From assembly GCA_026983835.1 (NCBI GenBank), contig JALSTH010000040.1, positions 510 to 64,509 of the forward strand: a stretch of DNA of 64,000 nucleotides. The letters run 5' to 3'. The notes under the pieces are model-generated. The model saw only the letters and a list, made by a program, of their open reading frames with translations. It was not told the DNA's origin and did no database searches. Below, piece by piece: positions 7,990 through 57,542 of this stretch. The position numbers and the translations under genes were made by a program. This DNA is from Candidatus Zixiibacteriota bacterium (lineage in GTDB: Bacteria > Zixibacteria > MSB-5A5 > UM-FILTER-46-8). Each line of letters begins with the position of its first letter. Positions within the stretch are counted from its first letter, which is position 1.

Positions 7990-9183
7990 ATGCCTAAAGA
8001 AATCGTATTAAAATATGATAGCGCATTAGATGACAAAGAGTTGCGTGCTATCAGATTATTTAACAAGCTATTCGATAAAAAAGAAATACAGTTAGGATAT
8101 GACAGCGATGAGGTAATTATTCTATTACAAGAGATCGATATTAACAAATTAAAAGAAATATCCTCTCATTTTTCCGGTTATACTGATAAGAAGATTTTCA
8201 AAGATGTTCTCCGCTCAATAGAACAGATAAAAAGTTATGGGATTAAAGGAAAGAAAAGAAACTATGTTGATTATAATAAGGAAAGAAAAGTAAAGGGCAG
8301 AAAGAGCAAGGAATTAATAAGACACCAATATTACTATACTCAAGGAAACACTTTCGCAAAAGATGAAAATAAATTCCCGGAGGAATATGAAAATAAAATT
8401 ATTGTTGGCGATAGCGAAAATATATTAAAGAATATACCCGATAACTCTGTCGATTTGGTTTTTACATCACCTCCATATAATTTCGGGCTTGATTATGCTC
8501 AAAATCAAGACGCACACTATTGGGAAGATTATTTTGCAAAGCTTTTTAAGGTTTTTAAAGAATGTATTAGAATTACAAAATATGGCGGGAGAATAATAAT
8601 AAATGTTCAGCCATTATTTTCGGATTATATACCAAGTCATCAAATAATAAGTAATTTTTTTATGAAAGAAAAACTTATTTGGAAAGGGGAAATTCTCTGG
8701 GAAAAAAACAATTATAACTGTAAATATACCGCTTGGGGAAGTTGGAAAAGTCCAAGTAATCCATATTTAAAATACACCTGGGAATTTATTGAAATATTTT
8801 GTAAAGGGGATTTAAAAAAGACTGGAATGAAAGAAAATATAGACATTTCCGCGGATGAATTTAAAAAATGGGTTGTAGCGAAATGGTCAATTGCTCCCGA
8901 AAGAAATATGAAAAAATATGGACATCCCGCAATGTTTCCCGAAGAATTAGTTGAGCGTGTTCTTAAACTGTTTAGTTATAAGGGAGACATCATATTAGAT
9001 CCATTTAACGGGGTAGGAACAACTACTGTTGTTGCAAAAAGATTAAAGCGGAAATATGTCGGGATAGACATATCGGAGAAATATTGTAAAATAGCAGAAA
9101 AAAGGATACGGGGTTTAAAAAATAAACTTGGGTTATTTGCAGATGGAATCCAAGTTAAAGATAAAAAATTGATGAGCTGGTAA
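7990..9183 (+). CDS. Solitary DNA methyltransferase (beta-class N4-cytosine/N6-adenine) with a lysine-rich ~130-aa N-terminal extension
   Basis: Motif IV DLVFTSPPYNFGLDY (SPPY) precedes motif I ILDPFNGVGTTTVVAKRL, the beta-class order. Strongly AT-rich relative to flanks. No adjacent restriction endonuclease ORF. Confidence 0.8.
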   Translation: MPKEIVLKYDSALDDKELRAIRLFNKLFDKKEIQLGYDSDEVIILLQEIDINKLKEISSHFSGYTDKKIFKDVLRSIEQIKSYGIKGKKRNYVDYNKERKVKGRKSKELIRHQYYYTQGNTFAKDENKFPEEYENKIIVGDSENILKNIPDNSVDLVFTSPPYNFGLDYAQNQDAHYWEDYFAKLFKVFKECIRITKYGGRIIINVQPLFSDYIPSHQIISNFFMKEKLIWKGEILWEKNNYNCKYTAWGSWKSPSNPYLKYTWEFIEIFCKGDLKKTGMKENIDISADEFKKWVVAKWSIAPERNMKKYGHPAMFPEELVERVLKLFSYKGDIILDPFNGVGTTTVVAKRLKRKYVGIDISEKYCKIAEKRIRGLKNKLGLFADGIQVKDKKLMSW

Positions 9184-9429
9184 TTAGCTATAATAATAAA
9201 GTAAAAGAGATAACATTTGGAAGTAAGCCTACACATACATTGATGTCGTATTTTCCCGAAGTTAAGTTGCGAATATTTACATTTCTGAAGGGAGAGCGCA
9301 AAGTAGATAAACCAATTCATAAACCGAAATTCTTTAAGCCGTTAGAAAAGAAGCAGATTGAAAAGGCTGTCTTTATTTTATCGGCAGACTTAAAAAAATA
9401 CTTATGAAGCAAACAAATCACTACAGCGG

Positions 9430-10254
9430 ATGGCAATTCAGCGGCGCTTTTTTGCCTCCGGTAAACTCTGTCGTTATATCAATCCTATGAGAATGATAAA
9501 AGTATTAGCAGCGGTAATTATAGCTTTTTATATTTTCTCTTTTTTCCATTGTGGCAAAAAAAAGGAAAAGCAGATGAATTATATCGTAACGGAAAGGGGG
9601 GTTAATCTCCCTGTCTATACGGATATGCCCGAAGGTAGGGGTCCTTTCCCCGTATTGGTTGTGGCGCCAGGTTTGGGATATAATGCTACTCTGCCTTTGT
9701 TCTCTAAAATCGCCGAACAATGTAGATCCAATGGAATAATATGTGTTAGGTTCGAATGGGGATTTTTCATTAAAAACATCTCTCCATCGGAGAATTATGT
9801 AAATGAAAAGGACGATTACAACAGCGCGGTCAAATATGCAAAAAACATCCCCGAAGCCGATACCACCGAAATAATTATCGCCGGTAAATCATTGGGCGCG
9901 TTTGTAGCTCTGGATTATGCGGTTCGACATAAAGATTATAAGGCGTTGATACTGTTGACGCCGCCGTTGCATCCCCCACAACCTCCGTATGAAATCAGAA
10001 AGCGGTTCGAGGGATTGGATGAGACAAACGGGGGTGTCGCCATTATTTACGGGGACAAAGATCCTCTCTGCCATCCCGATAAACTAAAAGAACTTTTGGA
10101 TAAATTAAGGGTAAAACCGACGGTTTATCGTTTAAGGGGGAATCACTCTTTCAAAGGGGATACACAGCTTGATACGGAGCGGAATCTTGAAGATGCCGCT
10201 ATGTCTGTTGTGGGTTTTGTTCAAAAAGTCTGCGGCCAAAATAAAAGACATTGA
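9430..10254 (+). CDS. Alpha/beta hydrolase (dienelactone-hydrolase-like), secreted or lipoprotein
   Basis: Nucleophile elbow IIAGKSLGAFVAL (G-x-S-x-G). N-terminal hydrophobic segment MRMIKVLAAVIIAFYIFSFFHCG. C-terminal His/Asp region. Confidence 0.6.
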   Translation: MAIQRRFFASGKLCRYINPMRMIKVLAAVIIAFYIFSFFHCGKKKEKQMNYIVTERGVNLPVYTDMPEGRGPFPVLVVAPGLGYNATLPLFSKIAEQCRSNGIICVRFEWGFFIKNISPSENYVNEKDDYNSAVKYAKNIPEADTTEIIIAGKSLGAFVALDYAVRHKDYKALILLTPPLHPPQPPYEIRKRFEGLDETNGGVAIIYGDKDPLCHPDKLKELLDKLRVKPTVYRLRGNHSFKGDTQLDTERNLEDAAMSVVGFVQKVCGQNKRH

Positions 10255-10354
10255 AATTTCATATCAGCTCCAAATAAATCAAGGGCGGACAACCATCCGC
10301 CCTTGCAACTTTAAGAATTTATACAATCGCTTGCGATTTATCGTAAGTAAAGTT

Positions 10355-10915
10355 TTACATCCCCAAATTGTATTTCACCCCGGCCATAATCCAAAGCTGA
10401 TTTACATCTGAAACCAACGAGTATCTAAATTCGGCAAAACCGTTTAAAAGGGGACTTAACTCCATCTCGGCACCACCCAGGAAATGAAAGCCAAATTTAG
10501 TATCGGTATCGGAGGTCGAACCGGATCCATACCAGCCGGAATCCCATTCGACTTTAGAGCCAAACATATGAAGTCCTATGCCGCCGCCGATATATGGTGA
10601 GAATTTGGATTGAGGAACCGGGAAGAAATATTTCCCGGATGTCAATATGGCGATATCGTGCATACTTACGCTTCCACCAACTTCATCATAACTTTTTGAC
10701 CAATAGGTAACCTCAGCTTCCCAGCCTAATTGGGGGATAATGGTACCGAGATCCGCTATGGCGCCGAAACCGAATGTGCCGTCGATATTTTCGGGTTTTA
10801 CATACCCGACTTTCGCACCGACAGCTTTCAAACGAATTGCCGATTGAGCAAATGCAGGTACAGCAACGGCAACGATACATAATGCTAAAATGGTGACGAT
10901 TACTTTCTTGGTCAT
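10355..10915 (-). CDS. Small outer-membrane beta-barrel protein (OmpW/OmpA-like beta-barrel family)
   Basis: Signal peptide MTKKVIVTILALCIVAVAVPAFAQ, alternating amphipathic beta-strands rich in G/Y/F, aromatic-rich C-terminus. Confidence 0.55.
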   Translation of the reverse strand: MTKKVIVTILALCIVAVAVPAFAQSAIRLKAVGAKVGYVKPENIDGTFGFGAIADLGTIIPQLGWEAEVTYWSKSYDEVGGSVSMHDIAILTSGKYFFPVPQSKFSPYIGGGIGLHMFGSKVEWDSGWYGSGSTSDTDTKFGFHFLGGAEMELSPLLNGFAEFRYSLVSDVNQLWIMAGVKYNLGM

Positions 10916-11135
10916 ACAATCCTCCTAACTGAATATTTTTTATTTATCGGATGTTATAATATTATGATATTTAATACTTAACTTGCCAATTCATTAACAC
11001 GCTCAAATCTTTTAAAATTATAGGGATTTATATAATGTCGTAATCTGTTAGTCAAGGGATTTCTGTTTCCTCTCTTTCCTTTTTTGAGAAATGATGTCCT
11101 TTGGGAAATGGGAACTTAACCAAATTTTTCAAGGT

Positions 11136-11155
11136 TTGACTTGACAAAAAGTCAA
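11136..11155. promoter_or_regulatory. Perfect 7-bp inverted repeat TTGACTT-gacaaa-AAGTCAA overlapping a TTGACA -35-like hexamer; candidate operator/promoter in the 815-bp divergent intergenic region
   Basis: Read directly from sequence. Palindrome arms are 11136-11142 and 11149-11155. TTGACA lies at 11141-11146 with AT-rich -10-like hexamers 15-18 nt downstream. Confidence 0.3.
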
Positions 11156-11254
11156 TTTTATGATAATGATAACTTAATATCAAATTCCTATATAAGTTAG
11201 GAGTGATGGATTTTTTTTGATTATCGGCTTTTCTCCTAAAATAGGTTATAAAAA

Positions 11255-11363
11255 GGAGTCGAAGCCGAGCCTTGCGATCTATGGAAATAACTGAAAAGCC
11301 GTTTTTATGTATATCGGCATTTCAGAAGGATCACTTTAAATGCGCTCAGGGAGCTTCGACTCC
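11255..11363 (+). other. ~110-nt element closed by an 11-bp inverted repeat (GGAGTCGAAGC ... GCTTCGACTCC) with internal GCCG/CGGC hairpin; candidate structured RNA or miniature repeat element upstream of the tlpA-like operon
   Basis: Arms at 11255-11265 and 11353-11363 are exact reverse complements. Additional GAGC/GCTC pairing extends the stem. No ORF spans the element. Confidence 0.3.
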
Positions 11364-11734
11364 AAAATTTTAACCCGGACAGATAAAACTTCCAGAAGAA
11401 AAGGTTTTAAGTAAGTTCGTAATCCCTCGAATTTTAATCTATCCCGTAGAACGAAGCGTTGAATTTTCACCTGATTTCAACCCGCTATCGAGATTATTTT
11501 AAATCAATAATCAGAGAATAAATACTCCATTAGAATAATTTTGCAATCCCTCCCAATATTATCAAGTATTTTTAACCTTGACTTTATGGAAATTATTACT
11601 ATTTTTAAGACGGAAAGTAGATAATATTCTGATAATAGGTAATCCAACAAAAGATAAGGTCTGTTTCTTCTTTGGAATTCATTGAGATTAAATTAAAAGA
11701 TATACATTACTTTATCTGATATTATGGAGGATAA

Positions 11735-12271
11735 ATGAGTAAAAGGCTTGTAGTAGTAGCTATTTTTATTTTCGCCATTTTTATGGCTAACAACAGTTAC
11801 GCCGGTAAAAAAAAGGCGTTTGACTTCACATTAAACGATTTAAATAATAATCCAGTTAGTATGAAATCACTTTTAGGAAAGGGTCCTGTTTATATCGCCT
11901 TTTGGGCAACTTGGTGCAAACCTTGCAAAAATGAACTGGAGATTGTCAGCAAAATCTATGATGAATATAAAGATAGAGGGTTTCAACTTGTCGGTATTAA
12001 TGAAGATGCAGGCCATTCATTAGGAAAAGTAAAATCATTTGTTAAATCCCAAAAATGGAATTTCCCCATTTTATTGGACAAAAATGAAAAAGTAAAAAGG
12101 GATTACAAAGCTTTTGGATTACCATATTCGGTTATTTTGGATGCCGAAGGAAATATCATCCACACCGCTTACGGTTTCCGCCCGGGAGATGAGGTAAAAG
12201 TGAAGGAACTAATCGAATCCCATCTGTTAACGGATGAAGCAGATTCTACCGCAAAGAAAGCAACGGAATAA
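11735..12271 (+). CDS. TlpA/ResA-like periplasmic thiol:disulfide oxidoreductase (thioredoxin fold)
   Basis: Signal peptide, FWATWCKPCKNELE active-site C-x-x-C, overall TlpA-like redoxin layout. RBS GGAGGA upstream. Confidence 0.75.
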   Translation: MSKRLVVVAIFIFAIFMANNSYAGKKKAFDFTLNDLNNNPVSMKSLLGKGPVYIAFWATWCKPCKNELEIVSKIYDEYKDRGFQLVGINEDAGHSLGKVKSFVKSQKWNFPILLDKNEKVKRDYKAFGLPYSVILDAEGNIIHTAYGFRPGDEVKVKELIESHLLTDEADSTAKKATE

Positions 12272-12291
12272 AATCGAAAGGATTTGATTAG

Positions 12292-13791
12292 GTGATTTAT
12301 ATGAATAGAGCTTTTTATTTTTTTATATTTTTACTTTTAACCTTGATAGTTATTCAAACAGTGCAGGCGGATGATGTTTCCATCCAAACCCAAAACAAGT
12401 TGGAATATTATTTAGACAGAAACCCGACCGATTCCGGGGTCCACAACGATAGTTTGCGCAATCGATTGACCGTTGATATGCTCTATGGTAATTTCTATGC
12501 CGGTATATGGTACGAAGCGTTCGAGCCAATTACGAGATTAACCACCGGAGACACATCTTATGAGGGAATTACCCAGAGGTATTTCGGCTGGACGGACGGC
12601 AATGCCGAGATAAGATTAGGGAACTATTATGCGAATTTCAATCGAGGCTTGATACTTCGGGCTTACGAAAATCAGGATGTCCAGATAGATAAGAACTTGG
12701 ATGGGGTGTGGGCGAGCTATCGGGGAAACAAATTCAACTTGGAGGCATTAAACGGGAAGATACTTCTTTCCGAGAACATTTTGCTTTCCCCTCTGATCCG
12801 CACGCGGGAAAATGACATTGTAGCTTTTCGAGGGGAATTGACACCTATCAGTAATATCTCCTTCGGCGGCGCCGCTTTGCGTTATAAAAAGAAAAACTCA
12901 TTTACCTCTGAGATAGAATATACCAATGCGCAGGAAATTACCGCCGGACTTACCTACGGTCCTTTTGATTTCTATGCCGATTATGGCCGTCAAGAAGGTA
13001 ATGAGGGGTTCTATATAGGGAGGCCTGATCTGAAAACAGGCGATGCGACCTATCTGACAGCTTCCTTCTCAACCGGACTTTTTGGCATCTCTGCGGAATA
13101 TAAGAATTATTATAATATGGCTTTGGATTTCAACGCCCCTCCTTCGGCGAACCATCGTGATCAATCGCCCAACGCTTTATGGGCGCAAAGTGGAGCTAAC
13201 GACAGGGGATTTCAGGTCTCGCTGTTTTTCGCTCCGCTTAATAATTGGACCGTTGAAGCCGATATCGCCCAGAGTGGTGAAAGACCCGATGAATACGGAC
13301 ATATCCAACAGAAAATATTCAACAACTTTTATGAGGTGCGGGGATATATCGGTAGGAATATTTTGATATTGAATTACGAACGCACCGATACCGGTGTCGA
13401 AGGATTGGAGCAATTGCCATACGGGGAGTTCACTTATTATCTCGATGATGACAACACTATCACACTGACCGGGCAGGTTAGAAAATTGGAACGCATTCGC
13501 GATTTGTTCGGTAAGGATGATTACAACGAAACCGACTACTCTATCTCATTTTCGCATTCGTATTTTCTTTCTATAACGGTTTACGGAGGCTTTACTTCGG
13601 AGGAGTTTCAACCTTGGGAACAATCCTTCCCCAAACGGAGCGGGGCGATATCATTGGGGCTTCGTTACGGGGAACATGATCTGAATATATTTTACGGGGA
13701 TCAGCGAGGCGGTTTCGTCTGCACCGAAGGCGCCTGTCGTGAAGTTCCACCATTTAGAGGTTTGAAAATAACTTTGGTATCGAGGTTTTAA
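12292..13791 (+). CDS. Outer-membrane protein (probable beta-barrel/porin-like), unknown family
   Basis: Cleavable signal (LLLTLIVIQTVQADD). G/Y/N/F-rich alternating strands. C-terminal ...TLVSRF ends in the aromatic residue typical of BAM substrates. Confidence 0.4.
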   Translation: MIYMNRAFYFFIFLLLTLIVIQTVQADDVSIQTQNKLEYYLDRNPTDSGVHNDSLRNRLTVDMLYGNFYAGIWYEAFEPITRLTTGDTSYEGITQRYFGWTDGNAEIRLGNYYANFNRGLILRAYENQDVQIDKNLDGVWASYRGNKFNLEALNGKILLSENILLSPLIRTRENDIVAFRGELTPISNISFGGAALRYKKKNSFTSEIEYTNAQEITAGLTYGPFDFYADYGRQEGNEGFYIGRPDLKTGDATYLTASFSTGLFGISAEYKNYYNMALDFNAPPSANHRDQSPNALWAQSGANDRGFQVSLFFAPLNNWTVEADIAQSGERPDEYGHIQQKIFNNFYEVRGYIGRNILILNYERTDTGVEGLEQLPYGEFTYYLDDDNTITLTGQVRKLERIRDLFGKDDYNETDYSISFSHSYFLSITVYGGFTSEEFQPWEQSFPKRSGAISLGLRYGEHDLNIFYGDQRGGFVCTEGACREVPPFRGLKITLVSRF

Positions 13792-13859
13792 CTGTTATTG
13801 GGAATCAAATTGGAAAACAATATAAAATCAATAACCCTTTCATCTCTTAGGAGGAAAAA

Positions 13860-14897
13860 ATGAAAAAACTGTTATTGGCAACGGTGGCGATTTTCTTGCT
13901 TTCTTACGGGAATTCCTTTGCCACTCTAAGAATGCCGCTCGGGGAAATGTTCACCAACACCGGCTGCGGACCTTGCTATAACGCCGAGATAGCTCTGGAC
14001 AACATAATGGAGGAGCATTGGGATGATTATTCCCTAATCCGCTATCATGTCAGTTGGCCCAGTTCCGGCGATCCGTTTTATACTTTCAACAGAGCGGAAA
14101 ATATGGACAGGAACGATTATTACAACAATGATTATACCCCTCATCTTTTCATTGATGGCATTGTTGACGGTGAATATTATTACAACAATTGGGACGATCA
14201 ATTTGCGTTGCGCTGGGACACCCCGAGTCCATTGGAAATCGAACTGATAGGTCATTATAATGGCGCTGACCGAGAGAATCAACTGCATATTTCGATGACC
14301 GCCACCGATAATATCAATTTCAATGATTTGCGGCTGTTCTGCGTTTTGATTGAGAATTACATCCAATATAACGCTCCCAACGGTGTGCGGCAACACGATC
14401 AAACTATGAGGGATATAGTCCCCGATTCCGATGGTGAATCATTTACCATAAGCAACGGTGAAACGAAGGAGTTCGATTTTACAATCGCTTTGGACCCGCA
14501 ATTGGCTGAGGATAACTGCGAGATAGTGGTCTTCGTTCAGGATTATTCCACGAAGGAAGTCCTTCAATCGGCAAAGATCGATGCTACCTCCGGCCAGACC
14601 GGAATTGATAACGATGGAAATGCTCTAACCCCAAAGACTACGATACTTTCCCAGAATTATCCCAATCCATTCAACGCCGAAACATCGATAGCTTTCAGTC
14701 TTGACAAAACCTCTTTCGTGAACCTCTCGGTTTACAACCTTAAAGGACAAAAGGTTGCGGAGTTGGCAAATGGTAATTACAAAGCCGGATTATATTCGGT
14801 CAGTTGGGATGCTTCCGAGCAAGCATCGGGAGTTTATTTCTACCGTTTAAGTGCCAACGGCGAGGTTAGAACCAGACGAATGGCTTTAATAAAATAG
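13860..14897 (+). CDS. Thioredoxin-fold T9SS cargo protein, Cys form (HBP35-like), paralog 1
   Basis: Signal peptide ending SFA. EMFTNTGCGPCY (CGPC thioredoxin motif), YTPHLFIDG cis-Pro-like region, C-terminal T9SS sorting domain NYPNPFNAETSIAF...GVYFYRLSANGEVRTRRMALIK. Confidence 0.7.
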   Translation: MKKLLLATVAIFLLSYGNSFATLRMPLGEMFTNTGCGPCYNAEIALDNIMEEHWDDYSLIRYHVSWPSSGDPFYTFNRAENMDRNDYYNNDYTPHLFIDGIVDGEYYYNNWDDQFALRWDTPSPLEIELIGHYNGADRENQLHISMTATDNINFNDLRLFCVLIENYIQYNAPNGVRQHDQTMRDIVPDSDGESFTISNGETKEFDFTIALDPQLAEDNCEIVVFVQDYSTKEVLQSAKIDATSGQTGIDNDGNALTPKTTILSQNYPNPFNAETSIAFSLDKTSFVNLSVYNLKGQKVAELANGNYKAGLYSVSWDASEQASGVYFYRLSANGEVRTRRMALIK

Positions 14898-14931
14898 AGA
14901 AAAAACTTAAAGCTTATTATAACTTGATGAT

Positions 14932-14956
14932 GGGCATTGGGAAATTCCCGATGCCC
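14932..14956 (+). terminator. Hairpin GGGCAT-t-GGGAA-a-TTCCC-g-ATGCCC between paralog 1 and paralog 2; weak terminator/attenuator with no strong U-tract
   Basis: Read from sequence, 11 paired positions. Followed by ccgtcggattaagtttt. Confidence 0.25.
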
Positions 14957-14994
14957 CCGTCGGATTAAGTTTTAATCATTCAAGAGGAAAGATT

Positions 14995-16038
14995 ATGAGA
15001 AAGATATTCTCGGCGCTTGGTTTAGCGGTAATTATATTGCTAACGGCAGGAAGCTCCTTTGCATTAGATCGAGTTGTTATAGGAGAGCTTTTTACCAACA
15101 CTTCGTGACCGTATTGTAAAAATGCTGAATTGCAACTCGATCAGTTGACCGAGGAATACGCCGATACGATCGCCATAATACGCTACCATGTCAATTGGCC
15201 AAGTAGCGGCGATCCTTTTTACCTTTTCAATCCCGATGAAAGTATGAACAGGAACGGTTTCTATGGAAATAGCTATACCCCTCACCTTTTCATAGATGGT
15301 TCTGTGGATGCAGGCTCCAATTATTCCGGTTGGGGGACTATGTTTATGGACCGATATGCTATACCATCGGATTGGCAAATTAACGCTAACGGAACTTTTA
15401 ACCCCATAACGCGGGTAATACACCTTAATATAAGCATCGATCTGGACGGCGAAAATCCGGATGGCGTAGAATTTATAAGAACTGCTCTTACCGAGAGTGA
15501 TTTACATTTCAACGCGCCGAATGGTTTAACGGTATTTAATCAGGTTTTCAGGAATATGATGCCCATTATCTATGGTGTGACTGTCGAACCTGATAGCAAT
15601 GGTCATTTCGAAACTTCTTTCGATTTCACTGTGGATGAGGAAATTATTACCGAAAACTGCGAACTTGTGATGTTTATCCAATCAACGCGGGAACATAAAA
15701 TATATCAGGGGTATAAAATGCCGTTTACCGATTTAATAGAATCTTCGGTATCGGATGATAACGATAATATCCCTAATGAGTTCGCTCTCATCGGCAATTA
15801 TCCCAACCCTTTTAACTCCTCGACGGTAATCGAATTCAAAACCGAAAACCGCGGGAATGTGAAGTTAGGTGTTTATAATATAGCTGGGAAGAAGGTTGTC
15901 GATTTAATTGATGGCGGGTTGCCTGCGGGGTATCATTCTATCACATTTAATGCCGATGAGCTTCCCTCCGGCATCTATTTTTATCGACTGCGTTCCAATG
16001 ATAAAACAGCTGTCGGCAGAATGACTCTCGTTAAGTAA
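14995..16038 (+). CDS. Thioredoxin-fold T9SS cargo protein, predicted selenoprotein (in-frame TGA=Sec at 15106-15108), paralog 2. The six-frame ORF 15130-16038 is an N-terminally truncated call.
   Basis: GAGGAAA sits 5 nt before ATG 14995. The frame is open over 37 codons and encodes a signal peptide ending SFA, then ELFTNTS-TGA-PYCK. This aligns residue-for-residue with EMFTNTGCGPCY of paralog 1, with the TGA at the first Cys. Downstream region is collinear with paralog 1 (IRYHVNWPSSGDPFY, YTPHLFIDG) and ends in a T9SS CTD (NYPNPFNSSTVIEF...GIYFYRLRSNDKTAVGRMTLVK). Confidence 0.6.
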
Positions 16039-16060
16039 TATCGATAATATCCCTGATGTC

Positions 16061-16093
16061 AAGCGGCACGATTTTGCCGCTTGACTTTTTTTA
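16061..16093 (+). terminator. Rho-independent terminator after paralog 2 (AAGCGGC-acgatttt-GCCGCTT + TTTTTTATTT)
   Basis: 7-bp GC-rich stem at 16061-16067 / 16076-16082 followed by a T-tract. Confidence 0.6.
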
Positions 16094-16143
16094 TTTGGCG
16101 ATTTATTTTTTAATTGAATTGATCTTGTCAAGCAGGTAAAATA

Positions 16144-17175
16144 TTGAAAATAATAACAGGTTTATTTCTATCTTTGATGCTTTTGGTGGGGGGTGATTCG
16201 TTTGCGGCGACAAGGGTTGTCGTGGGGGAAATGTTCACCAACACATCGTGAGGGGCTTGTTCCTTAGCCGATATGACTCTCGATCAGTTGACCGAGCAAT
16301 ACAAAACTCAAATCGCCGTAATCCGATACCATATATGGTGGCCCTCATCGAAGGACCCCTATTATCAATACAACCCTGAGGAAGCAACCGCCAGAAATAA
16401 CTTTTATGCCAACCAATACGCCCCGCATCTTTTTATCGAGGGAAGCGATTATGGGTCGGAGTATGAGCAATGGGAAACAGCCTTCCTGCAGAGGATGGGC
16501 ATATCTTCCGATTGGTTTTTCAGCGTAGGGGGTGATTATAACCCCGACAACCGAAATCTTCATTTGGATATCGATATCTTCCTTGAAAATGAAAATCCCG
16601 AAGGGGTGGAGTTCTTACGAATTGCGTTGGTGGAGAATAATATATTCTGGCAGGCTCCCAATGGCGTGGATTGGCATAATCAGGTTTTTCGCGATATGAT
16701 ACCCGATCCGAACGGAGTAGAAATAACTCCCGATAATTCCGGTGTCTTCCAGACGGAAGTCGATTTCACCATAGGGGAAGAGATAGTCCTCGAAAACGCC
16801 GAGCTTGTATTATTTATCCAATCGACACGGGATAAGGAAATACTTCAGGGATACAAGGCTGCCCTTTCGGATTTCGAGATTAACTCGATTGATGATTCCC
16901 AAAATAAACCGATTAACAAGGCAGAGCTTTTTAATTACCCGAACCCTTTCAATTCCTCAACTGAAATTAAGTTCTTTCTCCCCCACAACGGACAAGTAAA
17001 GTTGGAAATCTATAACCTTATCGGGGAAAGGATAGCAACCCCGCTAAATGATAAACTATCCGCAGGGGAACATTCCGTCCTTTTTAGGGCGGATAACTAT
17101 TCTACCGGGGTGTATTTTTGTAAATTATCTTATGGAAAATTAAATCTGATCAGCAAGATGGTCTGTATTAAATAA
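16144..17175 (+). CDS. Thioredoxin-fold T9SS cargo protein, predicted selenoprotein (in-frame TGA=Sec at 16249-16251), paralog 3. The six-frame ORF 16273-17175 is an N-terminally truncated call.
   Basis: TTG 16144 is the first start after an in-frame stop at 16120-16122, with AGGT 6 nt upstream. It encodes LKIITGLFLSLMLLVGGDSFAA (signal peptide ending SFA), then GEMFTNTS-TGA-GACS. The rest is collinear with paralogs 1 and 2 and ends in a T9SS CTD (NYPNPFNSSTEIKF...GVYFCKL...KMVCIK). Alternative ATG at 16177. Confidence 0.55.
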
Positions 17176-32621: not shown

Positions 32622-35417
32622 TTGATGGGTTTTTGTGATTATATTATTGGAGGTAAAAGAATGAAAAAGTTATTTTTGTTCTCTCTTGTTTCGTTTATGG
32701 CGATCTACGGTATCGCTGCCGCTACCTTTGTCAGCGGCGATATTTCGGGAGGGTGGACTGCGGACAACAACCCATATCTTGTATTAGGGGATTTGCAGAT
32801 TCCTCAGGACTCAACACTGACCATTTATCCGGGAGTATCGATTTATTTTTTGGGGAATTATGAATTAAATGTGAATACTGCAGCTACTTTAGTAGCGCTG
32901 GGTAGCGAAAGCGATTCGATTACCTTCACTACTATCGACACTTCCGTAGTTTGGGGCGGCATAAAAATTCATTCGGCTGAAGCATATCTATCCTTTTGCC
33001 GCCTTAGAAACGGAAAAGCTACAGCATATAACCCCTATTCCGGTGGCGCTGTTTTTTGCGACCATTCTAATCTTCTCTTAACTAACTGCACAATCAACAA
33101 TCACATAGCGAGTTATAATGGCGGTGCAATATATTGCGTCTCCTCAAGTGTAGTAATAAGCAGTAGTATCATAAGCGGGAATTTGTCTTTTGCCGGCAGT
33201 GGTGGAGCAATTTGTTGTGATTCCTCAAGCATAGTCATATTTAATAATACTATCGACGAAAATTCTGCCGGTGAATATGGAGGGGGAATTTGCTGCGTGT
33301 ATTCTAGCGGAGAAATTAGCGAAAACAATATCATCAACAATACGGCCGATAACGCTGGCGGTGGAATTATTTGTTTTCATTCGGACCCGATCATAAGTAA
33401 TAATACCATCAATCATAATTCAGCCATTAATGGTGGTGGTATCAATTGCTGTGGCCATTCAGCCCCGACCGTGAGTGGAAACACTATCGGCAATAATTCA
33501 GCAGATAGCTCTGGTGCAGGAATTTACTGCAATTATTCGAGCCCGAGGATAAGCGATAATTTCATCGTGAACAATTCCATATCCGGTAACTATGGACTAT
33601 CTGGTAGTTATGGTGGCGGGATTTACTGCTATCATTCGAGCCCGAGAATAAACAATAATACTATTGCCAATAATTCTAATTCCGGTGATTATGGCGGAGG
33701 AATTTGTTGCGATTATTATTCTAATCCAAAGATATAATACAATACTATCAGGCATAATTCAGTCGCGAGTTACGGTGGTGGCATCTACTGTTATAGCTCC
33801 AACCCGGACATAAGCCAAAATACTATCGGTAACAATTCAGTCGGTATCGGTGGCTACGGTGGCGGTATTTACTGCTATGGCTCCAACCCGAACATAAGCC
33901 AAAATAATATTGATAACAATTCGGTCGGTATCGGTGGTTATGGTGGCGGTATCTACTGTTATGGCTCTAACCCGAGCATAAGCAAAAATAATATTGATAG
34001 CAATTCGGTCGGTATAAGTGGTTATGGAGGTGGTATCTATTGTAACTCTTCCAATCCGCCAATAAATGGAAACACTATTAAAAATAATGCTGCCGATTTA
34101 TCCGGTGGGGGGATTTACTGCAATTTCTCGAATGTTGAGATAAAGATGAACAAAATCAACAATAATTCCGCCGGGCTTTCCGGTGGGGGGATTTATTGCA
34201 ATTCTTCCCACCCGAGAATTGCCAAAAATACCATCGGCAGCAATTCAGCTTCTATTTCCGGTGGGGGGATTTTCTGCAAATCCTCCCAATCGACAATAAA
34301 TGGAAATGTTATCACCGGCAACAGAGCCGATTACTTCGGTGGCGGGCTTTATCTTATCTCTTCCAACCAAACGACAATGAGCAATAACACCATTAGCAAC
34401 AATACTGCCCATTTCTATGGTGGTGGACTTTACAGCTGTAATAATTCCGCTATAAAGGTTGTTAATACTATTTTGTGGGCTGACTCCTCCGCCCGCAACA
34501 GCGAAATCTATTTGGAAAACGATTCCATAGCTATATCTTTTTCCGATATACAGGGTGGATGGGAAGGTAGTTGGAATAATAATATGAACCCGTTATTTGT
34601 CGATCCTGAAAATGGGGATTATCATCTGCAGGAGGGTTCTCCCTGTATAGATGCCGGCGATCCGAACTCGCCCTTTGACCCGGATAGCACAATCTCCGAT
34701 ATGGGAGCGCTTTATTTCTATCAGGGTGGGGGGAATGGTATTTCTATCATAGCCGACCCCATCGATCCGCCGATTATCGTTTCCCAAGGCTCCAGTTTCA
34801 ATTATTACGGGTATCTCATTAACACGACAGATACGGATTTGACTACCGATGTTTGGTGCAGAACATTGATGCCTGATGGTTCTCTATCCGACACGATTCG
34901 CGTATGGAGCGAGGTGTCGGTGGCGGCTAATAGCACCATAGAGGATTTTATTGTTCAATATATTCCTACCTATGCCTCTCTGGGCGATTATTTATATATC
35001 ATTTATGACGGGGATTATCCGAATATTATGAATTCTGCTTATTTCCCCTTCACGGTTATTGCGGCTACCGAAGGATTAGCGGGGAGTGATCGTGGCTGGG
35101 AGGTAAGTGGGTGGGGAGGGAAAGCGGACGATATGGATGCTGTAAACATCCCTGCCAAATTAACCTTGAAGGACAACTATCCGAATCCGTTCAATGCGCA
35201 GACCACTATTACCTATCAACTGCCAAAAGCAGGCGATGTTTCCTTGGATATTTACAATCTAATGGGACAGAAGGTGGCTACGCTAGTCAACGGCAATGTT
35301 GAAGCTGGTTCACATACGGTTGTTTGGAATGCCGGCTATTATTCCAGTGGGATTTATTTCTATAAACTAACCGCCGGCAATAAAGTCTTCACCAAACGGA
35401 TGACACTGCTGAAATAG
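32622..35417 (+). pseudogene. Right-handed parallel beta-helix repeat T9SS cargo protein (adhesin-like), one continuous 932-codon frame interrupted by a single in-frame TAA at 33735-33737. The ORF calls 32622-33737 and 34146-35417 are its two pieces.
   Basis: Signal peptide. Dozens of ~22-aa N-x-[AS]-x-x-GGGI[YFI]C-x-x-S-x-P-x-I-x-x-N-x-I repeats continue in the same frame on both sides of the stop (…SNPKI*YNTIRHNSV…); I hand-translated 33738-34160 with no further stops. C-terminal T9SS CTD NYPNPFNAQTTITYQL...GIYFYKLTAGNKVFTKRMTLLK. Confidence 0.55.
33740..34060 (+). repeat. Near-identical 66-nt (22-codon) tandem DNA repeats inside the beta-helix gene
   Basis: Three to four consecutive units such as ggtatcggtgg(c/t)ta(c/t)ggtggcggtat(t/c)tactg(c/t)tatggctc(c/t)aacccg(a)a(c)cataagc(c)aaaataatattgata(a/g)caattcggtc, encoding YGGGIYCYGSNP.IS.NNID.NSVGIGG. 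Confidence 0.6.
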
Positions 35418-53950: not shown

Positions 53951-54550
53951 ATGTCGGTTGTAGGTTTAACGGGCTCTCCGGGAGCGGGCAAAACAACGAT
54001 CGCCAATATATTCAAGGAGTTGGGGGCGGAGATTGTCTCTGCGGATGAAATCGGCAGGGAGGTGGTCGAATCCAATTCGGAAGTTTTGGAGGCGTTGATA
54101 AAAGCTTTTGGGAAAGACATTTTGGACGAGAGGGGAAATTTAAATCGCAGACAGTTGAGCGGAATTGTTTTTTCCTCCGATGATGCGCTTAAAAAACTAA
54201 ACCGAATAGTCCATCCCTCTTTGCTGATGGAATTAAAGCGGATAATCGATGAGCATCGCTTTGCAAAGGGGGAAAAATTGATGATTGTTGATGCGGCGTT
54301 GATTTATGAATGGGGGATTGCGGATTGGTTTGATGCGGTGATAGTTGTTTATGCTGACCTTTGGTTGCGGATAAAACGGTTGAAATCGCTGGGTTTAACC
54401 GAAAGTGAAGTGATGGGCAGAACCGATTCCCAACTGCCGCAGGAGGAGAAAATCCGTCGTTCCGACTACACGATAGAGAACAACGGATTGCTCAAAGATA
54501 TCCGCCCCGAAGTTGAAAAACTTTATCGTATTTTAATGCGCCCGAAATAG
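53951..54550 (+). CDS. coaE: Dephospho-CoA kinase
   Basis: MSVVGLTGSPGAGKTTIANIF P-loop. ATG 53951 is preferred over ORF start 53906, which overlaps polA. Confidence 0.85.
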   Translation: MSVVGLTGSPGAGKTTIANIFKELGAEIVSADEIGREVVESNSEVLEALIKAFGKDILDERGNLNRRQLSGIVFSSDDALKKLNRIVHPSLLMELKRIIDEHRFAKGEKLMIVDAALIYEWGIADWFDAVIVVYADLWLRIKRLKSLGLTESEVMGRTDSQLPQEEKIRRSDYTIENNGLLKDIRPEVEKLYRILMRPK

Positions 54551-54661
54551 CTGACTACAAATTTAGCGAGACTTATTAGCGGGAACCAAATGGGTGGATT
54601 ATGATGGGGAAATACTAATAGGGAAAACTGGGATGATAATTTCGATGGGGGGGAATAAAAC

Positions 54662-54690
54662 TTGCGAAAAGTTTTTGGGGTTGATATAAT
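54662..54690 (+). promoter_or_regulatory. Consensus-like sigma-70 promoter: TTGCGA – 17 bp – TATAAT
   Basis: Read from sequence: -35 at 54662-54667, 17-nt spacer, -10 TATAAT at 54685-54690, in the AT-rich intergenic region after coaE. Confidence 0.4.
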
Positions 54691-54722
54691 ATAATTTGAG
54701 AAATATTCAAATTGGCCTAATT

Positions 54723-54799
54723 AGAAGCACTTATAGAAATAGAAAGTACGAAGGAGCTAAAAACTGCTCTTGGGTTCGAGTCCCAGTTTCACTGCTTCT
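54723..54799 (+). ncRNA. tRNA-like element: 7-bp acceptor-like stem AGAAGCA/TGCTTCT enclosing a GGAGC hairpin and a canonical T-arm (TTGGG-TTCGAGT-CCCAG). It is not a canonical tRNA: no D-arm, and 6 extra nt sit between T-stem and acceptor.
   Basis: GGTTCGAGTCC T-loop motif and the exact 7-nt inverted repeat are read from sequence. Lies between the promoter at 54662-54690 and the hairpin terminator at 54856-54880. Confidence 0.35.
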
Positions 54800-54855
54800 T
54801 AATAAAGGGAATATTTCCGAATAAATTCTCGAAATGTTCATAAAAAAGCAGTATC

Positions 54856-54880
54856 CTTCGGATAAAATCCGAGATTTTTA
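54856..54880 (+). terminator. Small rho-independent terminator (CTTCGGA-taaaa-TCCGAG + ATTTTTA) upstream of the RloC-like gene
   Basis: 6-bp stem including a G·U pair, 5-nt loop, T-tract. Confidence 0.4.
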
Positions 54881-54936
54881 AGCAGGCTCTAATAGGATTA
54901 TATCGGAGGAGTTTAAAATTATTTAAGGTCAAAAAG

Positions 54937-57381
54937 ATGATAAAAAGAATTAAAAAAATTAAGGGAGTTGGAAGATTTTTGAATGTCGGCCATACGGAGC
55001 TTGGCCGATTAACCTTAATCTATGGCCCTAATTGTTATGGCAAGTCAACCCTTTCTGATATTTTCCGTTCAATAGCGAATAAAAATCAAGAGATTTTATC
55101 AAACAGATATTCTATTGTAAGAAATGGTGGCCCTATTGCCCAAGAAATATGTTTTAGCGTTAAAACTGATGTGGATCAGACAGAACAAGATATTTCTTGC
55201 GTTGACCGAAAGTGGAATACAGGAAGCTTCAATTACTCGATAGAAGTTTTTGACTCTCGGTTTATTGAGGATAATGTTTTTACCGGTTTAACAATTTCAA
55301 GGGACAATAAAAAAAACCTTACCAATTTGTTGATAGGTGAAAAAAGTGTTGAGATTGGCAAACAAATAGACTCTTTAAAAAATAAATCGCTTCACGAAAA
55401 GACAAAAGATATTGGCGAACTTGAGGATTCGCTCAAAAGAAATTTGGGAACTTTAAATTTAGGAATAAGTCTTGAAGACTTTATATCAGTCGAGAAGCCG
55501 GATGATATTGAAACGACTAAATCTAAATTAACTATGCTTCAAGAAAATCTGAAGAAAGTTATAAAATTAATTTCGGAAAAGAATAAGATTCTCGAACTCG
55601 ATGGACCATTAATACTTTCTATAGAAGATCCCGAGCCGACAATTAAAATTCTAAAAGATTCGCTGGAAAAAGGTTTTGAAGATATAAACGATACTGCATA
55701 TAAGCGAATGCGAGAACATATAGAACAACACTTCAAATCCCACGATGGCGAAGAAGAAGAGTGGATTGAAAAAGGGGTAAATGCCTATCTTAAACAAAAT
55801 AAAGATACAACCGTCTTAAATTGTCCGTTTTGTAGTCAATCTTTAGCTACAGTTGTTGATCTTATTGAGACATATAAAACAGTGTTCAGCGAGGAATATG
55901 AAAGCTTTTATAATGAAGCTCTTAGAATGCTGGACGATAAACATCAAGAATTCAATAAAATTATTAACAACATTAAATTAGTAGAAAATTCAGTAAATAA
56001 AAATTTGGCAATTTGCGGACGCTGGCAGGGTTATTTTACAGACGAGACCCAAAAACTCATTGAACAAATAGATAATTTCAGCAATAAAGTGAATAAATCC
56101 AAAAGCAACCTCGTAGGGCTAATGGAAGAAGTTTCCGGCAAATTTGGAGAACTTATCGGTGAAAAAAAGAAGAAGCCTTTTGTTTCTATTAAGGAATTTC
56201 CTACTGGCGATAAATTACTAACCACTTATCAGCAATTCGCAGAAATGGTAAATAAATACAATGAAGACGTAAAGTTACTTATTATAGAAATAAACACCCT
56301 TAAAACAAGGAGTCAGAATGACCAACTAGTAAAAGAGTCAGAAAACTTGAGCAATAAAATAGAGGACATAAAAACAAAAATAAAAAGATCCGAATTAGCG
56401 GCAGATATAGACAAATATCAACTTTTAAAAAGAGAGAAAGATAAAATAGAACAGGAAATTAAAAAATTGCAGGAAAAACTAGAGCAAGAAAATACAAAAT
56501 TCATTGAGCAATACTTTCAGGATACAACGCACATTTTTAATAGATTAGGCTCTATTGACTTTGAAATTCAGACAACTTATAGACGTTGGGGAGGTCAGCC
56601 GGTATATGAACCGACAATCAAATTTGCAAACGAAGAAATTACTTTTAATCGATTACCATTTATATTTAGTGATGCGGACAGGAGGGCTTTGGCATTTTCA
56701 ATTTTCATTTCAAAACTCAGAAATAAAAGTGAGGCTGAATTAAAAAATACCATCGTTTTTTTAGACGATCCAATAACCAGCTTTGACGACAATAGAATTT
56801 CACAGACCTTTATAGAGATTAAGAATCTTACAACATCTTGCCGCCAATTAATTATAGCTGCACATCACAGCAGATTTTTACTTGATACTTACGAGAAACT
56901 AAAAAGCCTTCCGAATCTGGATTTAAAATTTATTGAAATCAAAAGAGATGGTTTTGGTACCCTCTTTGGGTTGGTTAGTGATCCTAAAACTAGATTAGAC
57001 CCCCATGCTCAAGAAATAGAGAAGGTGGAAAGATTTATTAATGGCGATTCTGATGTAAACGCGTCGGACGTGCGTAGATCATTAAGACCAATACTAGAAA
57101 AAGAGATAGAGTGGAGGTTCAGAAGAGACTTAAAAGGAGTATCTTTTGAGGGGCTTGGCGATATTGTTACCAAACTGAAAGAAAAAAATTCAATAAGCGA
57201 GAAGATAGCAAGAAGGATTTACGACTTTAATGACGTACTTATAGATGACCATCACGAAACAACTTTAGATACGAATGAAGATACAAGAAATTTGTCTAGA
57301 GATATCATTGAATTTATTTTTAAAGAACTAATCCCTAATAGTAAGTCCTTGAATTCTGAATTTAAAAAACTTGATAAATAG
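54937..57381 (+). CDS. RloC-like (AAA_13 family) ABC-type ATPase with coiled-coil insert carrying a CxxC zinc-hook; candidate anticodon-nuclease/defence protein
   Basis: N-terminal IKKIKGVGRFLNVGHTELGRLTLIYGPNCYGKSTL (Walker A). Roughly 500-aa K/E-rich coiled coil containing LNCPFCSQSL. Distal signature-like FSDADRRALAFSIF, Walker B IVFLDDPITSFDDNR, H-loop IIAAHHSRF. About 160-aa C-terminal domain. The gene is very AT-rich. Confidence 0.6.
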   Translation: MIKRIKKIKGVGRFLNVGHTELGRLTLIYGPNCYGKSTLSDIFRSIANKNQEILSNRYSIVRNGGPIAQEICFSVKTDVDQTEQDISCVDRKWNTGSFNYSIEVFDSRFIEDNVFTGLTISRDNKKNLTNLLIGEKSVEIGKQIDSLKNKSLHEKTKDIGELEDSLKRNLGTLNLGISLEDFISVEKPDDIETTKSKLTMLQENLKKVIKLISEKNKILELDGPLILSIEDPEPTIKILKDSLEKGFEDINDTAYKRMREHIEQHFKSHDGEEEEWIEKGVNAYLKQNKDTTVLNCPFCSQSLATVVDLIETYKTVFSEEYESFYNEALRMLDDKHQEFNKIINNIKLVENSVNKNLAICGRWQGYFTDETQKLIEQIDNFSNKVNKSKSNLVGLMEEVSGKFGELIGEKKKKPFVSIKEFPTGDKLLTTYQQFAEMVNKYNEDVKLLIIEINTLKTRSQNDQLVKESENLSNKIEDIKTKIKRSELAADIDKYQLLKREKDKIEQEIKKLQEKLEQENTKFIEQYFQDTTHIFNRLGSIDFEIQTTYRRWGGQPVYEPTIKFANEEITFNRLPFIFSDADRRALAFSIFISKLRNKSEAELKNTIVFLDDPITSFDDNRISQTFIEIKNLTTSCRQLIIAAHHSRFLLDTYEKLKSLPNLDLKFIEIKRDGFGTLFGLVSDPKTRLDPHAQEIEKVERFINGDSDVNASDVRRSLRPILEKEIEWRFRRDLKGVSFEGLGDIVTKLKEKNSISEKIARRIYDFNDVLIDDHHETTLDTNEDTRNLSRDIIEFIFKELIPNSKSLNSEFKKLDK

Positions 57382-57542
57382 GGATTTTGGTGGATAATAA
57401 AACTAACTTTACCTACCGCCCTTTATTTTGTAGCCCGTCGCTTTCTGAAAAAATTTCGGTAAAGTTAGATAGCAGGTGGTGAGGATAATCCATCGCCTGT
57501 TGAGTCTTTAAAAAATTGGGTTTAATATTATATTCCCAGGGA

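Follow-up and report, generated by a model that had tools for sequence, protein, structure and literature searches.

The 35-kDa hemin-binding protein HBP35 (PG0616) of Porphyromonas gingivalis is a type IX secretion system (T9SS) surface cargo that binds hemin; its Cys48 and Cys51 are required for insulin reduction, and its gene complements an Escherichia coli dsbA mutant (PMC2907840). DUF1223 (PF06764), which includes Atu2684 (PDB 2axo), is an accepted thioredoxin fold (SCOP c.47; PMC3091736), and a selenocysteine (Sec)-containing branch of the Omp28 superfamily has already been curated as NCBIfam NF045500, "Omp28-related selenoprotein." On the periplasmic side, the clients of the TlpA, ResA and CcmG reductases are cytochrome c maturation and the reduction of ScoI/CoxB. 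Here we describe a cluster of five genes at positions 11735 to 17175 of a 64-kb window (the whole stretch of DNA that was analyzed), in which genes for a TlpA/ResA-like redoxin and a DUF6029 β-barrel precede three tandem Omp28-like paralogs, one with Cys and two very probably with Sec at the active site. The window corresponds to metagenome contig k141_146319 of ENA ERZ27262647, from a Zixibacteria-like sediment bacterium, and the nearest named homologs of the paralogs are proteins of candidate division Zixibacteria called "Omp28-related outer membrane protein."

An earlier note on this DNA, made from its letters, had described five same-strand genes in tandem here, and we found all of them on the + strand at the coordinates that it gave, separated by spacers of 20, 68, 97 and 105 nt, in that order.

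11735 to 12271, + strand: gene A, exported TlpA/ResA-like thiol-disulfide oxidoreductase of 178 amino acids (aa), from Pfam matches and NCBIfam matches below cutoff
12292 to 13791, + strand: gene B, DUF6029 outer-membrane β-barrel of 499 aa (PF19494, E 5.1e-34)
13860 to 14897, + strand: gene C1, Cys form of 345 aa, with C36-G-P-C39 at nt 13965 to 13976 and a T9SS C-terminal domain (CTD) at nt 14658 to 14897
14995 to 16038, + strand: gene C2, predicted Sec form of 347 aa including U, ATG start, U-P-Y-C site, CTD at nt 15799 to 16038
16144 to 17175, + strand: gene C3, predicted Sec form of 343 aa including U, TTG start, U-G-A-C site, CTD at nt 16936 to 17175

We consider the cluster to be best explained as a conserved extracytoplasmic thiol/selenol redox module of Zixibacteria-like and related FCB-group (Fibrobacteres-Chlorobi-Bacteroidetes) bacteria.

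Each of C1 to C3 consists of a signal peptide ending in SFA (read from the sequence), a thioredoxin-fold module, an Omp28-type β-sandwich and a type-A T9SS CTD. The earlier note had ascribed to the paralogs a signal peptide, an N-terminal thioredoxin-like module, a middle domain and a T9SS CTD and had proposed profile searches; profiles and a structure model both agree with this layout, and Por_Secre_tail and TIGR04183 were found above cutoff in all three proteins (TIGR04183 at 35 to 46 bits, against a cutoff of 23). C2 and C3 are clear paralogs of C1, with 37 to 41% identity. The Omp28 family PF11551, whose gathering score is 34.9 bits, matched C1 at 70.8 bits (E 1.6e-19), with C2 and C3 just under the threshold at 33.6 and 33.0 bits, and DUF1223 matched all three weakly in Pfam (E 1.8e-5 for C1). 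Assignment to canonical thioredoxin (PF00085) or Redoxin was rejected, there being no match for C1 or C3; C2 gave weak Glutaredoxin (0.0065) and Thioredoxin_4 (0.016) matches, both under their gathering scores. Judged by sequence, then, C1 to C3 are an Omp28 (PF11551)/DUF1223-like branch of the thioredoxin fold, not members of PF00085. No heme motif (CxxCH) or known metal-site motif was evident in the paralogs.

An AlphaFold2 (AF2) model of C1, built on a 27-sequence alignment, reached a predicted local distance difference test score (pLDDT) of 83.5. Its thioredoxin core comprises a strand at residues 27 to 32, the CGPC motif at 36 to 39 and a helix at 39 to 52, all with pLDDT above 90, so that the motif sits at the canonical β1-CxxC-α1 position of the model. 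The invariant Pro94 immediately precedes a strand at 95 to 98 and would, in the model, occupy the thioredoxin cis-Pro site. The claim of a thioredoxin-like N-terminal module thus held for the modeled fold and failed for the canonical PF00085 profile. The remainder of the model is made up of a β-sandwich at about residues 125 to 241, a disordered linker at 246 to 269 and a seven-stranded CTD sandwich at 274 to 343; structure prediction for the middle domain, which the earlier note had also proposed, therefore returned the Omp28-type β-sandwich.

When the whole C1 model was compared with the PDB by Foldseek, HBP35 (5y1a) was the best match (E 1.1e-14, template modeling [TM] score 0.56/0.61, 346 columns, 14% identity), followed by the DUF1223 protein Atu2684 (2axo, 6e-9). 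A family sequence profile searched against the PDB likewise found 2axo (for the N-terminal part), the P. gingivalis Omp28 structure 2r2c (for the sandwich) and 5y1a (E 1.9e-4). The resemblance to HBP35 that the earlier note had pointed out holds for both architecture and fold: the two share a signal peptide, an N-terminal thioredoxin-fold domain with CxxC, a β-sandwich middle and a type-A T9SS CTD, with a TM score of about 0.6 and the weak profile match in the middle region. HBP35 differs, however, in that its thioredoxin part cannot be detected by sequence from C1, and in that it is a Cys protein of a host-associated Bacteroidota species, for which neither a Sec form nor tandem paralogs nor a TlpA/DUF6029 module has been reported.

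The families NF045500, NF033782 ("Omp28 family outer membrane lipoprotein") and PF11551 (PDB 2r2c) share with C1 to C3 a homologous core of thioredoxin-like domain and β-sandwich, at profile positions of about 35 to 280. Against NF045500, C1 to C3 (with U changed to C in C2 and C3) scored a subthreshold 45 to 59 bits, and five Sec forms reconstructed from other loci scored 39 to 74 bits, so that all eight proteins lie in the range of 39 to 74 bits against a cutoff of 200. Membership of the clade in NF045500 was rejected on this score, and the two are related only; the last ~100 of the 377 profile positions are unmatched, and there the C1-C3 clade has its type-A T9SS CTD instead. The NF033782 matches of the paralogs, C3 included, were also subthreshold, and C1 to C3 carry a signal peptide rather than the lipoprotein form that the family name implies. 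DUF1223 shares the thioredoxin fold and the motifs E-L-F-T-x-x-x-C-x-x-C-P...Y-H-V, whereas in Pfam 2axo has neither a CTD nor an Omp28-type sandwich.

Given the curated NF045500 and given HBP35 as a characterized surface CxxC cargo of the T9SS, the earlier statement that this is not a described system was too strong. In the open-access literature that we searched, we found neither the three-gene module nor the T9SS-tailed Sec clade, and nothing relevant that joined Omp28 to selenoproteins, selenoproteins to type IX secretion or Zixibacteria to selenocysteine. The parts are familiar singly; what is novel is the combination of predicted T9SS-exported selenoproteins, the conserved TlpA/DUF6029 module and a putative Sec insertion hairpin in two registers, together with the scale of misannotation. 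The family is large: a search of 1.84 billion cluster representatives with the CTD-free C1 core returned 4,046 at an E value of ≤1e-3, and at least 1,394 representatives carry the core domain at ≤1e-10. Some of its members (P0144, of 1409 aa, P0211, of 807 aa, and P0143, P0150 and P0263) have two or three Omp28-like thioredoxin cores or one core behind a long N-terminal extension.

The Sec assignment starts from two codons.

15106 to 15108, + strand: in-frame TGA of C2 (very probable Sec codon), aligned with Cys36 of C1, from read-through translation and alignment
16249 to 16251, + strand: in-frame TGA of C3 (very probable Sec codon), aligned with Cys36 of C1, placed in the same way

Both TGAs fall at the first Cys of the C1 CGPC motif, within the conserved motif E.FTNT[SG]-C/U-xx-C (GEMFTNTG-C-GP-C in C1, GELFTNTS-U-PY-C in C2 and GEMFTNTS-U-GA-C in C3). 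Upstream of the TGA, the same-frame translation of C2 and of C3 contains a signal peptide (...SFA) and the conserved motif, and each gene has a single in-frame TGA. The read-through frame of C2 is continuous, and its part before the TGA, the signal peptide together with DRVVIGELFTNTS, fits the family consensus. Public gene calls cut C2 to 230 aa and C3 to 300 aa, starting both past the TGA. These calls favor a different explanation, in which the TGAs are real stops, C2 and C3 are pseudogenes or shorter genes and the upstream pieces are nonfunctional remnants, as does the lack of any Sec machinery seen in the window. Products shortened in this way would, however, lose the signal peptide and the active site yet retain a secretion CTD.

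Homologs bear directly on this question. A first scan of a genome collection, with the full-length alignment, keyed on the CTD motif QNYPNPFN, so that nearly all of its 80 loci were unrelated T9SS cargo and the usable ones were L003 to L007, L009, L013 and L019. The metagenome scan, for which we used a core alignment without the CxxC and the CTD, gave 58 loci, in which every copy was read in frame with TGA as U. Across these loci the catalytic site was UxxC (TGA) in 50 copies, CxxC (TGY) in 27 and UxxU in 1. The TGA copies have open frames, with the signal peptide and the E.FTNT motif conserved upstream and peptide conservation on both sides. Real stops are hard to reconcile with 50 independent homologs that place TGA exactly at the catalytic Cys codon with a signal peptide and E.FTNT in frame ahead of it. 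Reassignment of the genetic code was also rejected as a source of the in-frame TGAs: TGA ends 11 of the 51 long open reading frames (ORFs) in the window, where it is thus an ordinary stop, and the code is standard. We therefore regard decoding of the C2 and C3 TGAs as Sec as very probable on this comparative evidence, in line with the earlier proposal of one Cys paralog and two Sec paralogs.

The gene calls of C2 and C3 are typical of the family. About half of the top 120 homologs in a word-index search start within a few residues past the CxxC, as do 37 of the top 150 cluster representatives, a pattern that gene callers would yield by halting at an in-frame TGA and restarting downstream. The public names are "Omp28-related outer membrane protein" and, for truncated records, "T9SS type A sorting domain-containing protein." About two-thirds of the copies sampled from metagenome loci, and about one in four of the top 150 representatives, appear to be selenoproteins cut short by public pipelines; the truncation costs them the signal peptide and the active site, and a dedicated model would repair many records.

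Two kinds of unusual site turned up among the TGA copies. At L084:767-778 both positions of the site are TGA (TNTT-U-GL-U), followed by a single register-II hairpin (see below), and this U-xx-U is a possible di-selenocysteine site. At L087:2683-3094, with the same layout in L096 and L098, an N-terminal piece of a Sec paralog, 117 aa long (signal peptide and U-SS-C), precedes by ~400 nt another Sec copy (U-AG-C) that apparently has no signal peptide of its own, an arrangement that could reflect a rearranged or duplicated N-terminus or an assembly frameshift.

Downstream of each TGA, within the coding sequence, we identified a candidate Sec insertion sequence (SECIS).

15136 to 15153, + strand: putative SECIS hairpin of C2, CUCG-A-UC[AGUU]GA-C-CGAG, starting 27 nt past the UGA
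16279 to 16296, + strand: putative SECIS hairpin of C3, with the same sequence as the one in C2, also 27 nt past the UGA

C2 and C3 share 50% of their residues and 54% of their DNA positions (37% of third codon positions), and the longest run of DNA in which they are identical is exactly this 18-nt hairpin, a motif found at these two places and nowhere else in the 64-kb window, against 0 occurrences expected by chance. Among the homologs the hairpin takes one of two forms. Register I, GCUGAUCUG[GUCU]UAGAUCAGY, lies 15 nt past the UGA and encodes ADLVLDQL, and register II, CUCGAYC[AGUU]GRYYGAG, lies 27 nt past it and encodes LDQLxE, the window copies overlapping LDQLTE codons. One or the other was present in 40 of 46 Sec forms versus 3 of 24 Cys forms (Fisher p = 1e-9), and the best downstream hairpin had a median of −10.1 kcal/mol in Sec forms versus −5.7 in Cys forms (Mann-Whitney p = 8e-5). 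In each register three base pairs were changed on both sides; one example, an exchange of A-U and G-C, was coupled to the change of LDQLVE to LGRLAE. We propose from these comparisons that UGA decoding in C2 and C3 is helped by the putative SECIS hairpin 27 nt downstream. A covarying hairpin with this distribution is again not what genuine stop codons would leave behind, and the recurrent TGA and the hairpin together effectively refute the pseudogene reading, to which we give close to no credence.

The hairpins resemble bacterial SECIS elements of the E. coli fdhF type in lying in the coding sequence 15 to 27 nt past the UGA, in their G/U-containing apical loops, in their compensatory changes and in being mostly missing from Cys orthologs. 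Register I has GGUCU, which also occurs in the apical loop of fdhF. The hairpins differ from that type in that two alternative registers reuse the LDQL codons and in that the window version is short, its stem of 4 + 2 bp carrying an AGUU loop and an A.C mismatch. The two registers are mutually exclusive, since the shared GAUCAG (LDQ) codons serve register I as its 3′ arm and register II as its 5′ arm (compare L095:7932 with position 15106 of the window), and they offer a neat case, from nature, of SECIS evolution within the limits set by a coding sequence. The hairpin GCCAGC[AGUUG]GCUGGC, seen in L115 (L115:43) and L117 (L117:7935), is a third variant. Two Cys copies, L098:6845 and L093:6726, retain a nearly intact SECIS-like hairpin past their TGY codon, which suggests from sequence recent switches between Sec and Cys within tandem arrays.

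The earlier note had proposed a functional link between the TlpA-like gene and the paralogs, and conserved synteny supports it. Searching all loci with genes A and B by tblastn, we found the order A, B and then one to four Omp28-like genes in 19 of the ~34 loci where 2.2 kb or more of sequence precedes the first copy, at identities of 35 to 47% for A and 25 to 36% for B. On seven more short contigs the end of a DUF6029 gene abuts the first Omp28-like copy. The module also occurs with Cys forms in metagenome-assembled genomes of Ignavibacteria/Bacteroidota (L004 and L006), while in L125, L126, L128 and L129 the Omp28-like gene directly follows TlpA, without an intervening DUF6029. The outer neighbors of the window cluster (an RDD protein, prfA and a small outer-membrane protein) were never conserved.

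We think it probable, with moderate confidence, that C1 to C3 are exported oxidoreductases of the HBP35/Omp28 type that carry Sec at the attacking position in C2 and C3, can be reduced by the TlpA-like protein, reach the surface through the T9SS and have the DUF6029 barrel as a partner. The signal peptides would bring C1 to C3 into the periplasm, from which the T9SS would carry them, by way of their type-A CTDs, to the cell surface or the medium. There, by analogy with HBP35, they may act in thiol- or selenol-disulfide exchange on extracellular or envelope substrates, where Sec would make the active site a stronger nucleophile and less prone to inactivation. The replacement of Cys by Sec in two of the three copies may also tune the redox potential, as the earlier note had suggested. 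The TlpA-like redoxin would supply periplasmic reducing equivalents or keep the active sites reduced there, and the barrel, with a Cys pair near its last strand, would be the outer-membrane partner, as a docking site, a substrate channel or a redox target. We infer the Sec insertion in C2 and C3, the surface localization of the paralogs, the direction of electron flow in the module, the substrate of C1 to C3 and the role of the barrel. As for the T9SS itself, no core por or gld genes were seen in the window; a working system is implied by two other genes there that encode T9SS cargo with a CTD, and these further cargo genes, at 32661 to 35417 and 58947 to 60947, suggest that the genome uses the T9SS widely.

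Gene A had been described as a TlpA/ResA-like oxidoreductase with a WCKPC site, and matches to AhpC-TSA (2e-25), Redoxin (1.1e-21) and ResA profiles agree with that description, the two Pfam scores lying well above their gathering scores. The protein has a hydrophobic N-terminus (a signal or an anchor) and the active site FWATWCKPC. Among NCBIfam models it came closest to those for ResA, StoA and TlpA (ResA subfamily, 1.9e-31). All syntenic homologs have W-A-x-W-C-x-x-C, always with Cys and never with Sec. In its redoxin fold, export signal and WCxxC, and in being a dedicated periplasmic reductase gene that adjoins its thioredoxin-fold or Cys-pair client, gene A resembles the TlpA, ResA and CcmG systems. 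It differs from them in missing every NCBIfam equivalog or subfamily cutoff (109 of 170 bits for ResA, 54 of 230 for TlpA), and in that its client here would be a T9SS-exported (seleno)protein in place of a cytochrome or a copper chaperone. Pfam annotation of the whole window, made via the source contig, showed no CcdA or DsbD gene, whether near the cluster or farther away.

Gene B, for which the ENA gene call begins at 12301, matched PF19494 at 118 bits against a gathering score of 27, and its C-terminus is the β-signal ...TLVSRF, of which ...SRF is kept in all syntenic homologs. Its AF2 model is all β, with about 22 to 24 antiparallel strands and a pLDDT of 68.8 (80 to 90 in the strands, poor in the loops), the quality being limited by a word-index search that gave only nine homologous sequences. 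Foldseek matched generic barrels in the PDB (FimD/PapC ushers, AlgE and porins) at TM scores of 0.2 to 0.4. The profile, the model and these folds all bear out the earlier description of an outer-membrane β-barrel; assignment of a specific DUF6029 function by fold search was rejected, the matches being generic and low in TM score.

A barrel next to surface proteins is the typical layout for capture and uptake, and this fits a second explanation, in which C1 to C3 bind a ligand or metal and are not oxidoreductases. The C/U-xx-C site, with the invariant neighbors E29, Y62-H63, D71 and R84, would hold either heme or some metal or metalloid (Cu, Hg, As, Se or Te). The TlpA-like protein would do no more than reduce this pair for loading, as TlpA reduces the copper chaperone ScoI for loading, and the barrel would import the captured ligand. 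This explanation agrees with the facts that the protein with the closest solved structure, HBP35, is a hemin binder required for growth when hemin is limiting, that invariant His and acidic residues lie in conserved motifs near the CxxC in sequence and that a surface reductase has no obvious reductant. It does not sit well with the interchange of Cys and Sec at the first position of a thioredoxin-fold CxxC, the classic mark of catalytic redox selenoproteins, with the catalytic activity of the HBP35 CxxC in insulin reduction or with the lack of a heme or known metal-site motif. Nor did Pfam show a plug or TonB-dependent receptor signature in the DUF6029 protein. We consider ligand or metal binding doubtful.

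The barrel carries a Cys pair of its own.

13720 to 13737, + strand: codons of the Cys pair C477-x-x-G-x-C482, in a mini-hairpin before the last barrel strand, identified from the homolog motif

The motif (E/Q)RGG-x-(V/I/T)-C-x-x-G-x-C was present in every syntenic DUF6029 protein that we examined, down to 25% identity and including the Ignavibacteria/Bacteroidota loci, and no Sec variants of the pair were seen among these syntenic homologs. From the topology of outer-membrane proteins, the expected place of the pair is the extracellular end of the last strand, because the C-terminus of a barrel assembled by the β-barrel assembly machinery is periplasmic.

An invariant Cys pair in the immediate neighbor is also in keeping with a third explanation, in which C1 to C3 act mainly in the periplasm or envelope, in transit or permanently, as DsbA/DsbC-like oxidases or isomerases, for example for the DUF6029 Cys pair or for T9SS cargo. 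The TlpA-like protein would then be their recycling partner, and the CTD would serve only their eventual disposal or display. That hbp35 complements a dsbA mutant shows that such a protein can act in the periplasm, where TlpA-like partners also reside. The clade members nevertheless all keep a full type-A CTD, which in the systems studied directs proteins to export and to attachment at the surface; the maturation of one barrel hardly accounts for three to four tandem paralogs, and many family members occur without DUF6029. A mainly periplasmic role seems to us distinctly unlikely.

Several observations weigh against our preferred reading, that of surface-exposed oxidoreductases fed by the TlpA-like protein and partnered by the barrel. 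A surface-exposed oxidoreductase would be without an obvious route of re-reduction outside the cell. The DUF6029 model is only moderately confident, with pLDDT below 50 at the Cys hairpin. Registers were assigned by pairing count, which inflates the 93 to 98% of paired positions (15 to 43% when the partner columns are slid), and the compensatory changes are the meaningful evidence. The hairpins of the window are the weakest of the set, at −4.0 kcal/mol, with an A.C mismatch that is also found in L084 and L090. There was no Rfam SECIS match in the whole window at gathering thresholds or around the TGAs at E ≤ 10, and the only weak matches fell on the terminator-like hairpin between C2 and C3. 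No selA, selB, selD or tRNA-Sec gene was present in the 64-kb window or the fetched loci, and the tRNA-Sec search of the window and 37 loci is uninformative given how little sequence they comprise. Finally, the TlpA/DUF6029 pair is missing from about 15 of the 34 loci whose upstream sequence is long enough to show it, so that the partnership is frequent, not obligatory; the neighbors in these loci are unrelated, and no alternative conserved partner was seen among them.

A more specific arrangement would be a relay across the outer membrane, in which electrons pass from the periplasmic TlpA-like protein to the DUF6029 CxxGxC hairpin and on to docked, T9SS-displayed UxxC proteins. We hold this relay to be a long shot. 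If true, it would mirror at the outer membrane the DsbD/CcdA relay of the inner membrane and would give anaerobic sediment bacteria a continuously recharged surface selenoenzyme, which could act, for instance, in the reduction of disulfides, polysulfides or metalloids outside the cell.

The module provides a first functional context for DUF6029 and Omp28/DUF1223, two families of unknown function, and a defined system in which to ask whether reducing power gets to the surface of the bacterium and, if so, by what route. Bacterial selenoproteins bound for the surface through the T9SS would extend selenium biochemistry beyond the outer membrane.

Two further elements lie in the spacers between the paralogs.

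14932 to 14956, + strand: imperfect inverted repeat GGGCAT...ATGCCC in the C1/C2 spacer, read from the sequence, with no T-run
16058 to 16095, + strand: terminator-like hairpin with T-run in the C2/C3 spacer (11 bp, 7 of them GC), from the terminator scan

The earlier note had placed intrinsic hairpins between the paralogs at 14932 to 14956 and 16061 to 16093. The second is strongly terminator-like, with an 11-bp stem at 16058 to 16085 followed by TTTTTTTATT. The first is a real repeat but, having no T-run, does not qualify as a canonical intrinsic terminator; it was missing from the terminator scan, which found in that spacer only a weak 6-bp hairpin at 14948 to 14963. Upstream of the TlpA-like gene, positions 10916 to 11734 form an AT-rich gap of ~820 nt with no ORF above 48 aa, several σ70-like hexamer pairs (e.g., at 11136 to 11170) and no Rfam match.

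Elsewhere in the window, the T9SS cargo gene at 58947 to 60947 (− strand) encodes a β-propeller (PQQ/FG-GAP-like) with Por_Secre_tail, and the one at 32661 to 35417 (+ strand) encodes a 918-aa β-helix protein (Beta_helix/NosD and Por_Secre_tail). At position 33735 in the latter, the window has TAA, a nonsense codon in midgene, versus AAA in the ENA copy of the contig, which is either a strain variant or pseudogenization or else a sequencing error; base-for-base agreement between the window and the ENA assembly ceases immediately past 35417. Two stretches, 8000 to 12000 and 54000 to 58000, are low in GC (0.34 to 0.37, versus ~0.43). They include, respectively, a gene for an N6_N4 DNA methyltransferase (7990 to 9183) and genes for an AAA_13 ATPase (54937 to 57381) and a Fic-domain protein (57543 to 58691), and they may be mobile or defense islands.

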